NCBI RefSeq assembly: GCF_044647545.1
Contig: NZ_CP172818.1
Reading direction: 5' to 3' (one strand)
Source: Escherichia coli
GTDB taxonomy: Bacteria > Pseudomonadota > Gammaproteobacteria > Enterobacterales > Enterobacteriaceae
Length of the DNA stretch: 64,000 nt
The position numbers were made by a program, and so were the translations under genes. Below are positions 5,471-10,678 of this stretch, one piece after another; the first letter of the stretch is position 1, and each line of letters starts with the position of its first letter. Below the pieces are notes generated by a model. It was given only the letters and a program-made list of their open reading frames with translations, was not told the DNA's origin and did no database searches.

Positions 5471-5711
5471 GTGGTGGGCGTTCGGAGTAAGGCAATCTGA
5501 CTGAGATTATCCAGTGACGGTAGTCGAGACTAAGGGCTTTCTTAACCTCGTATCCGCGCCTGCGGTAACACTGAATTATCCATTCAGCCTGCTCTTCAGT
5601 GCATGGAGGGTGTTGGAACCATTCAGACTTGAATGCGTGAGAATACCGCTCGTGCGTGCAGGCAAGAACGGGCGAATTATCAGAATTGTAATATTTTACG
5701 TTGCGTGCCAT
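5433..5711 (-). CDS. Hypothetical prophage protein
   Basis: 92 aa ORF, overlaps ydfU start by 38 nt in another frame; could be N-terminal extension of ydfU after a frameshift. Confidence 0.3.
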   Translation of the reverse strand: MARNVKYYNSDNSPVLACTHERYSHAFKSEWFQHPPCTEEQAEWIIQCYRRRGYEVKKALSLDYRHWIISVRLPYSERPPRASRTFQQRIWR

Positions 5712-5777
5712 CGGTTTTCTCCGGTGGCACGGTGTTACTCAGCGGGAGTTCAGCCCCGCGCAAGATTGTAGATGAGT

Positions 5778-6029
5778 TTATTCTTCTGCAAAAGCTGAAA
5801 AGCCTGCTTTTATTCCGATCTCTTTCAGTGCCTGTAATGAAGTGACAAACTCACCTTCGCGCAAGATAAATCCGTCTGTCACTCGACCATCCACAAAATT
5901 AATTAACGCAGCCCCATTCTTTCGCAAACACATAATGCGGTAATGACTAACAAGATTTCCATTTTCAACGCACACCGCATAGAGGCCATCTTCACAAAAA
6001 ATTTTACGCAGTTCTTCGATGTTCATCAT
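5778..6029 (-). CDS. rem: Prophage protein of unknown function
   Basis: 83 aa ORF in the position of K-12 rem between ydfU and hokD. Confidence 0.55.
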   Translation of the reverse strand: MMNIEELRKIFCEDGLYAVCVENGNLVSHYRIMCLRKNGAALINFVDGRVTDGFILREGEFVTSLQALKEIGIKAGFSAFAEE

Positions 6030-6146
6030 CAGAATCCTTCCGGATAATTAGCTCTCCCCTTTAAGGGACCATCCCTCTTATCCCTGCGCGCTACTTAAGT
6101 ATTTTTGATTCTATTCCGGCACCGTCCAGAACTTCAAACGCGTTGA

Positions 6147-6177
6147 AAATAAAAACAAAAACCCGCCGAAGCGGGTT
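6147..6177 (-). terminator. Rho-independent terminator of relBE-hokD operon (hok mRNA 3' end)
   Basis: Minus strand: AACCCGCTTCGGCGGGTTTTTGTTTTTATTTT hairpin plus T-run, ~70 nt downstream of hokD stop. Confidence 0.8.
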
Positions 6178-6245
6178 AAGTGCGGGTGCGTTGAGGATGC
6201 CTGCCACATCAGAGGTGGCGAGGGATTTCTCCCTCGCCGGGTCTC

Positions 6246-6401
6246 TTACTCCTCAGGTTCGTAAGCTGTGAAGACAGCGACCTCCGTCTGCCCGGTTCGG
6301 ATTCGTACCTCGCAGAGGTCTTTCCTCGTTACCAGTGCCGTCACTATGACGGTTAAACAGATGACGATCAGGGCGATTAACATCGCCTTTTGCTGCTTCA
6401 T
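6246..6401 (-). CDS. hokD: Hok/Gef-family membrane toxin HokD (RelF); not in the ORF track because <60 aa
   Basis: Manual translation of minus strand gives MKQQKAMLIALIVICLTVIVTALVTRKDLCEVRIRTGQTEVAVFTAYEPEE (51 aa), a Hok-family sequence. Confidence 0.9.
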   Translation of the reverse strand: MKQQKAMLIALIVICLTVIVTALVTRKDLCEVRIRTGQTEVAVFTAYEPEE

Positions 6402-6472
6402 AGCCTGCTTCTCCTGTCAACGCAAAGCAGAAGTGTCACCTTCGGTGCGAAACAGAGATGTCATGCTTTGGT

Positions 6473-6760
6473 TCAGAGAATGCGTTTGACCGCCTCGCTA
6501 TATACTTCCGAGCGTTCTCTTTTCCCAACAGAAATCACGAAAACGACAACTTTCTCGTCTATAACCTGGTATACAAGGCGATAGCCTGAAGACCGGAGCT
6601 TAATCTTGTAACAATCAGGCATACCACGGAGCTTGTTTGCTTCAATCCGGGGTGACTCAAGTACTTCAACCAGCTTCTTTTTCAACTGTTCACGTACCGT
6701 CGAGCCCAGCTTTCGCCATTCCTTTAGTGCCCGCTCGTCAAAATCCAGAAAATACGCCAT
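6473..6760 (-). CDS. relE: Type II toxin RelE (ribosome-dependent mRNA endonuclease)
   Basis: 95 aa, overlaps relB stop by 1 nt. Confidence 0.95.
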   Translation of the reverse strand: MAYFLDFDERALKEWRKLGSTVREQLKKKLVEVLESPRIEANKLRGMPDCYKIKLRSSGYRLVYQVIDEKVVVFVISVGKRERSEVYSEAVKRIL

Positions 6761-6999
6761 CAGAGTTCATCCAGCGTCACACGTACTGGCTTAGGATTAC
6801 GAAGCCGTTCTTTCACTATCTCCACAAGTTCAGCATCTTCATCACTCAGGAGTGTCTGTTTGAACGGCAAGCGTTCATTGTCAGCGATATACTCGAGCAT
6901 GAGACGAAGCGCTTCAGAAGGAGTTACACCCATTTTTTCAAGCGCGGCGTAAGAACGCGCTTTAAGTTCATCGTCAATACGCAGGTTAATGCTACCCAT
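6760..6999 (-). CDS. relB: Antitoxin RelB (RHH DNA-binding)
   Basis: 79 aa, MGSINLRIDDELK ribbon-helix-helix N-terminus. Confidence 0.95.
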   Translation of the reverse strand: MGSINLRIDDELKARSYAALEKMGVTPSEALRLMLEYIADNERLPFKQTLLSDEDAELVEIVKERLRNPKPVRVTLDEL

Positions 7000-7011
7000 G
7001 TCTTACACCTC

Positions 7012-7036
7012 TTGTAATTACAAATGTCATTACAAG
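7012..7036 (-). promoter_or_regulatory. relBE operator/promoter region (relO-like inverted hexad repeats)
   Basis: TTGTAATTACAA palindrome followed by TGTCATTACAAG, 13-37 nt upstream of relB start. Confidence 0.6.
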
Positions 7037-7329
7037 TATCGCACTACAACATGCTTAGGGCAAGTCACGAAGGAAGTCAGAAAGTAGTCGTAAGAACGGT
7101 GATCACTGTCCGCTTTGTGCCAGGAGCAGCCATTGCTAAGTCCATCCTGTATTGTGCAGGTCAGCTCGTTTTTAAAGAGTCCGGCCATCATCTTACTGGT
7201 ACAGACACCATATACTTTGTGACGGTCAGGCTACATATGCACAACTCAACTTATTCATCTATTTTTTGCTTTAGCATGTCAGTGTTGCTTTCTCGTCGGC
7301 GGGTGAGCGGTGACCTGACCTGTCGATAA
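7024..7329 (+). CDS. Hypothetical prophage ORF (possibly ydfV; strand and reality uncertain)
   Basis: 101 aa ORF; no clear RBS; overlaps relB promoter region. Confidence 0.25.
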   Translation: MSLQVSHYNMLRASHEGSQKVVVRTVITVRFVPGAAIAKSILYCAGQLVFKESGHHLTGTDTIYFVTVRLHMHNSTYSSIFCFSMSVLLSRRRVSGDLTCR

Positions 7330-7481
7330 AGGAACGTAACACGTTTTATGCAACACCCGCATGCGGCAGAAAATTATTGCCGAACGTTTACCCCTGTCAA
7401 CAAGCTTTACTTTCTGAGGCGCGCCAGCCCGCGAGGAAAACAATCTGAACATCAAACAATTAATGACACAAGAAATACGAT

Positions 7482-7508
7482 TAAAGATTTTTTTGTGCAT
7501 GCCGATAG
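7482..7508 (+). promoter_or_regulatory. Sigma-28 (FliA) class promoter for flxA
   Basis: TAAAGATT-N11-GCCGATAG vs consensus TAAAGTTT-N11-GCCGATAA, ~24 nt upstream of flxA start. Confidence 0.7.
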
Positions 7509-7531
7509 TGCTTTTTTAAAAGGAGAAATCT

Positions 7532-7864
7532 ATGTCTGTCACAATTCAGGGAAATACCTCAACCGTTATTTCAAACAACTCCGCCCCGGAAGGAACATCA
7601 GAAATAGCCAAAATCACAAGACAAATTCAGGTGCTGACTGAAAAGCTTGGGAAAATCTCATCGGAAGAGGGGATGACGACACAGCAGAAAAAAGAAATGG
7701 CTGCATTGGTACAGAAGCAAATTGAAAGCCTCTGGGCTCAACTGGAGCAGTTGTTAAGGCAGCAGGCAGAGAAAAAGAATGAAGACGCGACAGTTCAGCC
7801 TGATAAAAAAGAAGAGAAAAAAGACGATACAAATACCGCTGGCACCATTGATATTTACGTCTAA
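7532..7864 (+). CDS. flxA: FliA-regulated protein FlxA
   Basis: 110 aa, Q/K/E-rich coiled-coil-like; preceded by sigma-28 promoter and AGGAG RBS. Confidence 0.85.
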   Translation: MSVTIQGNTSTVISNNSAPEGTSEIAKITRQIQVLTEKLGKISSEEGMTTQQKKEMAALVQKQIESLWAQLEQLLRQQAEKKNEDATVQPDKKEEKKDDTNTAGTIDIYV

Positions 7865-10621: not shown

Positions 10622-10678
10622 TTTCTGGTGACGTTTGGCGGTATCAGTTTTACTCCGTGACTGCTCTGCCGCCCTTTT
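10622..10678 (+). ncRNA. dicF: DicF small regulatory RNA (ftsZ-targeting antisense sRNA)
   Basis: Sequence TTTCTGGTGACGTTTGGCGGTATCAGTTTTACTCCGTGACTGCTCTGCCGCCCTTTTT matches DicF as recalled, ending in hairpin plus T-run; exact processed ends not determinable. Confidence 0.85.

Follow-up and report, generated by a model that had tools for sequence, protein, structure and literature searches.

Introduction

Knowledge of the relF gene, now named hokD, dates back to the 1980s, and the gene has been known to lack a Sok RNA since 1999. In K-12, one full-length transcript was detected with relB, relE and relF probes, and deletion of PrelBEF abolished relBEF induction, showing that relBE and hokD (formerly relF) are transcribed together from a RelBE-repressed promoter (PMC3598666). 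After cleavage of this transcript by mRNA interferases, the relF part accumulates as its most abundant and most stable fragment (PMC3598666). Passages of PMC12214031 and PMC7232551, citing Pedersen & Gerdes (1999), describe hokD as a hok locus that lost its canonical components through genomic rearrangement. The HokD peptide is toxic upon overexpression (bioRxiv 10.1101/2025.08.07.668861). Among the canonical relatives, hokW-sokW has been experimentally shown to be a type I toxin-antitoxin (TA) system (PMC8621323).

Here, we analyzed a 64-kb stretch of Escherichia coli DNA (64,000 nucleotides, hereafter the window) that carries this operon. A preliminary description of the DNA had left open how hokD is kept silent. 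That question is largely answered by the literature on relBEF co-transcription (PMC3598666) and, in the passages cited above, on the rearranged hok gene (PMC12214031, PMC7232551). Our analysis adds the nucleotide-level anatomy of the rearrangement, in which a relBE cassette of the plasmid type adjoins a hokW-type gene of phages, with a 19-bp overlap of the two tracts that spans the Shine-Dalgarno (SD) sequence and the start codon.

Results

The relB-relE-hokD operon in a Qin-type prophage

The locus was identified as the relB-relE-hokD (relBEF) operon, long known in E. coli, of a Qin-type lambdoid prophage (Table 1). This operon and K-12 relBEF are one and the same locus, and as a find it was already known. 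The window interval 5700–7400 shares 99.9% identity with E. coli chromosomes on which rem, hokD, relE, relB and ydfV are annotated, and 1117 of 5426 complete genomes cover at least 80% of it. The MG1655 copy, which is 97.8% identical to the locus, lies inside the 'cryptic prophage Qin'. The Qin context is confirmed by the DicF sRNA, found in the window at 10623–10674 (+ strand, 76.7 bits). A cspA-type thermoregulator 5′ UTR was also detected at 2451–2843 (− strand, 158.8 bits), and this element and DicF are expected features of the Qin prophage.

Table 1. Features of the relB-relE-hokD locus and of the related tacAT-linked loci
Feature	Coordinates	Strand	Description
relBE cassette, upstream part (promoter region)	7037–7126	−	tract common with plasmid relBE-hok modules has its left end at 7126
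relO-type operator (predicted)	7011–7036	−	two adjacent palindromic repeats directly upstream of relB
relB	6999–6760	−	79 aa; antitoxin and autorepressor; ORF list, Pfam, NCBIfam, RefSeq
relE	6760–6473	−	95 aa; ribosome-dependent mRNA interferase; Pfam, NCBIfam, PDB match
relE-hokD spacer	6472–6416	−	57 nt; native relBE 3′ flank, not a hok leader
Spacer uORF	ATG 6456, TGA 6411–6409	−	15 codons (MTSLFRTEGDTSALR, then stop), in frame with hokD
Plasmid/phage tract overlap	6415–6397	−	AGGAGAAGCAGGCTATGAA; 19 bp, hokD SD through start codon
hokD (relF)	6401–6246	−	51-aa Hok/Gef membrane toxin; Pfam HOK_GEF
hokD 3′ UTR	6245–6182	−	hairpin 6238–6217 and orphan fbi-like element 6205–6182
Rho-independent terminator of the relB-relE-hokD transcript (predicted)	6150–6177	−	terminator scan; terminal hairpin in the fold
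tacAT-linked hok	L008 ~150–400	−	Escherichia sp. ESNIH1
tacAT-linked hok	L054/L055 1101–1722		Klebsiella IncF plasmids

The products of all three genes were assigned to their families. RelB matched Pfam RelB (E 1e-32) and the NCBIfam equivalog PRK11235 (133 bits, cut-off 96). RelE matched Pfam ParE_toxin/RelE (E 2e-13) and NCBIfam RelE_StbE (54.7, cut-off 27.9), and aligned over its full length with the solved E. coli RelE chains (4FXE, 4V7J/K; E ~1e-57). A relB gene is followed by an overlapping relE gene, the stop codon of the former and the start codon of the latter reading TGATG at 6760, and relBE is a type II TA module. HokD belongs to the Hok/Gef peptide family: it matched Pfam HOK_GEF (PF01848) along the whole profile (42 of 42 positions) with 82.9 bits (cut-off 22; E 1.2e-23), while its score for the NCBIfam Hok subfamily fell below the strict cut-off (48.5 as compared to 73). 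The peptide is identical in 40 loci. The three-gene module reported in the preliminary description was thus confirmed with every coordinate correct by the ORF list, Pfam, NCBIfam and the RefSeq annotation, and the family matches likewise bear out its reading as a stacked type II plus Hok toxin locus. That description had also called hokD unlisted; the gene is indeed missing from the 60-aa ORF track, but is annotated by RefSeq.

The upstream region of relB contains inverted repeats of 12 nt (7011–7022 and 7025–7036) that are 92% complementary. An inner palindrome, TTGTAA/TTACAA (7012–7023), is perfect. The relO-like palindromes previously noted at 7012–7036 were thereby recovered. These repeats are kept in the plasmid relBE modules and in a Pantoea relBE locus; by sequence, they form a palindromic operator (relO) for relBE autorepression, to which binding is predicted. 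At the other end of the operon, the terminator scan found a terminator-like hairpin, AACCCGCTTCGGCGGGTT, followed by a T-run (6177–6160, − strand), in accord with the hairpin already described after hokD. The consensus scan called no promoter-like and no terminator-like site in the interval between relE and hokD, and called no relBE promoter hexamers in 7037–7126. The arrangement is compatible with co-transcription of relB, relE and hokD from one promoter to one terminator.

The 3′ UTR of hokD is 98.5–100% identical to that of the phage hokW-type loci. Its fbi-like element (6205–6182) is complementary to the 5′ tac region of phage mEp460, and no 5′ tac partner for it occurs in the window transcript. 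Pairing of the orphan element with the spacer and SD was predicted by both the MFE and centroid folds; we rejected this candidate, given that 176 of 500 shuffled spacers paired equally well or better and that the pairing is absent from the fold of the plasmid version. An isrK-like match overlies the same 3′ UTR (6156–6237, − strand; 25.7 bits as compared to a gathering threshold of 50, E 0.006). An identity with Salmonella isrK was likewise rejected, as the match is sub-threshold and has only the hairpin and terminator in common; the likeness is probably one of architecture, not of homology.

Search for Sok, mok and tac

The Rfam sok model (RF01794) gave no match at E ≤ 10 in a permissive scan of 5500–7600. 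Among the positive controls (five loci), hokC scored 118 bits, hokB 110 bits and mEp460 115 bits, and two phage-plasmid hokD-type loci scored 115 and 112 bits. Since the model scores these controls at 110–118 bits, its silence at the present locus is meaningful. The preliminary description had proposed a search for −10/−35 elements antisense to the leader, and in our consensus scan no promoter-like site was found on the + strand in 5900–7300. We also ran BLAST with sokC, sokB and the reverse complements of the R1 and hokW-type leaders against the locus and the whole 64-kb window. At the locus, these queries matched only 14–19 nt around the SD and ATG, and no sok-like or leader-like sequence was found elsewhere in the window.

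In the window, a TGA lying five codons ahead of the hokD start closes the mok frame, and farther upstream the sequence is unrelated to that of mEp460. A 55-aa ORF with a TTG start (6420–6253) was considered as a mok remnant and rejected, because it does not lie in the mok frame, the mok of mEp460 being in frame with hok. Because Sok, mok and tac were each looked for and not found, the locus is not a canonical hok/mok/sok system; the earlier statement that no cognate Sok could be identified held in the Rfam, BLAST and promoter searches alike.

A junction at the hokD Shine-Dalgarno sequence

Comparison with complete hok/sok loci, which had also been suggested, showed that the likeness to them stops at the hokD SD. 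For every complete locus, the likeness begins at 6415, the A of the AGGAG SD. The hokC locus is 82% identical to the window from this position through the ORF into the 3′ UTR, and the same starting point holds for the phage-plasmid hokD-type loci, R1 hok/sok and the phage hokW-type loci. The R1 hok/sok reference was validated as 100% identical to real plasmids. In 77 phage records, only window 6415–6143 is matched, at 98.5–100%. The tract shared with mEp460 covers window 6415–4383 (2,034 bp, 97%); it starts at the hok SD, crosses rem and ydfU and reaches Q. Upstream of its hok SD, mEp460 has a canonical leader that includes tac and a mok extending hok in frame, and it is there that the Rfam sok model scores 115 bits.

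From the other side, window 7126–6397 is 98.8% identical to relB-relE-hok modules of Klebsiella and Enterobacter conjugative plasmids (L006 tract). This tract runs from the promoter region through relO, relB, relE and the 57-nt spacer to the SD and ATGAA. The plasmid-type and phage-type tracts overlap by 19 bp (Table 1), a stretch from the SD to the ATG that is conserved among hok genes, and we infer that the crossover lay within it. The annotated ORF ydfV (7024–7329, + strand) begins inside relO and crosses the boundary at 7126 between the plasmid-like relBE cassette and prophage DNA. No Pfam family matched ydfV, and it may be an ORF created by, or only apparent through, the rearrangement.

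The 57-nt spacer is identical in the plasmid relBE-hok modules. It has no likeness to the R1, hokC and hokW leaders, and it contains no mok, no sokT and no sok promoter. As a recognisable version of it follows a hok-less Pantoea relBE, we regard the spacer as the 3′ flank of relBE. The same observation led us to reject the idea, prompted by the tacAT-hok loci described below, that it is an alternative hok leader.

Related modules on plasmids

Modules with the order relB-relE-hok were found on conjugative plasmids of Klebsiella, Enterobacter, Citrobacter and Salmonella (for example L006 1982–2738, L011, L058 726–1482 and L059 728–1484). At least 80% of the R1-like relB-relE-hok module is covered by 451 plasmid records, and our literature search found no description of such plasmid modules. 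The junction of relBE, spacer and SD carries different hok types: the hokW-type in Qin and phage PhiR42_1, R1-like 52-aa alleles in L006 and L011, and a distinct 52-aa type (MKMPNQPIVLC...) on the IncHI2 plasmids L058 and L059. The Rfam sok model gave no match in the two modules scanned (L006 and L011). L058 and L059 have identical hok ORFs downstream of the junction but differ by ~13% in relBE; this contrast indicates that recombination breakpoints cluster at the relBE/hok junction.

A Sok-less R1-like hok was also observed beside a divergent tacA/tacT-type pair (DUF1778 and GNAT), with no relBE (Table 1). These tacAT-linked genes retain the last ~40–55 nt of the relBE 3′ flank, so that they apparently represent a second kind of type II plus hok stacking, derived from the relBE-hok junction. 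In addition, the exact relE-hokD junction was observed on a 5.5-kb contig of a metagenome-assembled genome labelled Collinsella sp. (L010, contig end 5357–5379). This is most likely a mis-binned Enterobacteriaceae contig, not DNA of the actinobacterium Collinsella.

How hokD may be kept silent

We consider it very probable that hokD is a hokW-type hok gene whose leader was replaced by the relBE cassette, and that its silence is mainly transcriptional, through the relBE promoter. Recombination at the conserved SD-ATG would have exchanged the entire 5′ regulatory leader for the cassette, thereby removing the hok promoter and tac/ucb as well as the start of mok, the target of Sok, and sok itself together with its promoter. 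The hokD gene would be left with neither an RNA antitoxin nor a promoter of its own, and would be transcribed only as the third cistron, from the relO-controlled promoter to the terminator at 6177–6160. Given that no promoter-like or terminator-like site separates relE from hokD, hokD expression is expected to follow the relO-controlled promoter. RelB/RelE autorepression, a step that has been shown in the literature, would in consequence replace Sok as the main brake on hokD.

Two further layers probably add to this silence. In ten hok loci, RNAalifold recovered a helix between the SD/AUG and the 3′ part of the ORF, with 90.5% of cells paired as compared to 32–47% in slid controls, although covariation is weak, with three pairs changing on both sides, which is not above shuffles. 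In hokD, this helix appears to be kept with no mok translation to open it, which would make translation inefficient; such a repression layer is plausible from the modelled folds. The other layer concerns codon 47, which is TAC (6263–6261) within TACG (6263–6260) and coincides with the published TadA A-to-I editing site (PMC12214031). Editing of ~6% of the hokD mRNA recodes this Tyr to the second conserved Cys (PMC12214031), which would be supplied in no other way. The SD of hokD, AGGAG at a spacing of 9 nt, is rated good. Moreover, relF alone kills when placed under strong promoters. Because of this killing and the good SD, the intrinsic repression of hokD would not be absolute.

Two other accounts of the control of hokD were weighed against the leader replacement. 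If the 15-codon spacer uORF replaced mok, translational coupling could be relayed from relE through the uORF to hokD; the relE stop lies 10 nt before the uORF ATG, the uORF ends a few nt before the hokD start, and its frame is kept in the tacAT-linked variants. However, the retained frame is uninformative because there are no indels in the stretch, the uORF has no SD, and its ATG, which is replaced by AGG in L058, the diverged Enterobacter module, and is missing from Pantoea, is not kept. We rejected the uORF as a mok substitute on this last ground, and the relay is highly improbable. The locus might instead be a complete type I system whose divergent Sok-like antisense RNA was overlooked by sequence tools. 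A weak + strand candidate promoter does exist inside hokD (TTAACA at 6377–6382, 18 nt, TAGCCT at 6401–6406; 8/12), picked out by eye and too weak for the threshold of the scan, and an antisense RNA unlike Sok with a non-consensus promoter is compatible with the sequence. Nevertheless, the likeness to every canonical leader ends at the SD, neither an Rfam match nor a promoter-like site at the scan threshold was found, and the spacer is the native 3′ flank of relBE, present also in the hok-less Pantoea locus. With the breakpoint at the SD and the spacer derived from relBE, we consider it very unlikely indeed that a divergent Sok is hidden here.

Discussion

Whether the replacement of the hokD leader by relBE left a dead gene or a working one is a separate matter, and here the inert passenger is the serious rival. 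According to this reading, hok/sok was killed by the rearrangement, and the hokD ORF is young or hitch-hikes with relBE and is never translated to any effect. Passages of PMC12214031 and PMC7232551 call hokD inactivated, Sok, mok and tac are missing, the second Cys depends on editing of 6% (PMC12214031), and the Qin copies of hokD are so nearly identical that they say little about selection. On the other hand, the hok ORF is intact in every complete-sequence locus (46, including the window and a pair of reference E. coli chromosomes) and in four further plasmid loci (L054, L055, L058 and L059), and three different intact hok types occupy the one junction on hundreds of conjugative plasmids. 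The dN/dS between Sok-less alleles is ~0.1, but because the pattern is mosaic, this value may stem from recombination with canonical loci instead of from selection in place. Expression of the peptide causes toxicity (bioRxiv 10.1101/2025.08.07.668861), and the relF part of the transcript is the most stable (PMC3598666). Taking both sides together, we hold an inert hokD to be a real possibility that falls somewhat short of probable.

More doubtful, and put forward here only tentatively, is the idea that the relBE-hok fusion is a selected modular operon. RelB, together with RelE, would take over the role of Sok by acting on hok transcription, and the junction would serve as a recombination joint at which relBE and hok alleles are shuffled. 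In that case, Hok would act as a second effector, aimed at the membrane, and would be released only upon sustained derepression of relBE or processing of the transcript by mRNA interferases. The find itself carries little weight, given that a textbook locus was re-identified. If the pattern reflects selection, however, it would represent a naturally occurring case in which a type I toxin has come under type II control, and would argue against hokD being simply a dead gene.

Comparison with known systems

The closest relative is the relBEF operon of the K-12 Qin prophage, which has the genes, their order, the flanks (rem, ydfU, ydfV, flxA and dicF) and the HokD peptide in common with the window, and differs only by strain-level nucleotide changes. 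The modules of Klebsiella and Enterobacter IncF and IncHI2 plasmids have the same relO, relB, relE, 57-nt spacer and SD junction (98.8% identity, 87% in L058). Like the window they lack sok, and unlike it they carry other hok types. The hokW/mokW/sokW loci of lambdoid phages (Sp5/933W type and mEp460) are 98.5–100% identical to the window in the hok SD, ORF and 3′ UTR, and in mEp460 the downstream rem-ydfU-Q region is also 97% identical. These phage loci, however, keep the full leader with sok, in-frame mok and tac, whereas the window has relBE and its 3′ flank in that place. With R1 hok/mok/sok (parB), the window has in common the Hok/Gef family, the SD-ATG sequence, a predicted helix enclosing the ORF and the 3′ fold-back element. 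In contrast to R1, it has no Sok RNA, mok, tac/ucb or hok promoter of its own, and a protein repressor acting at the operon promoter has taken over control.
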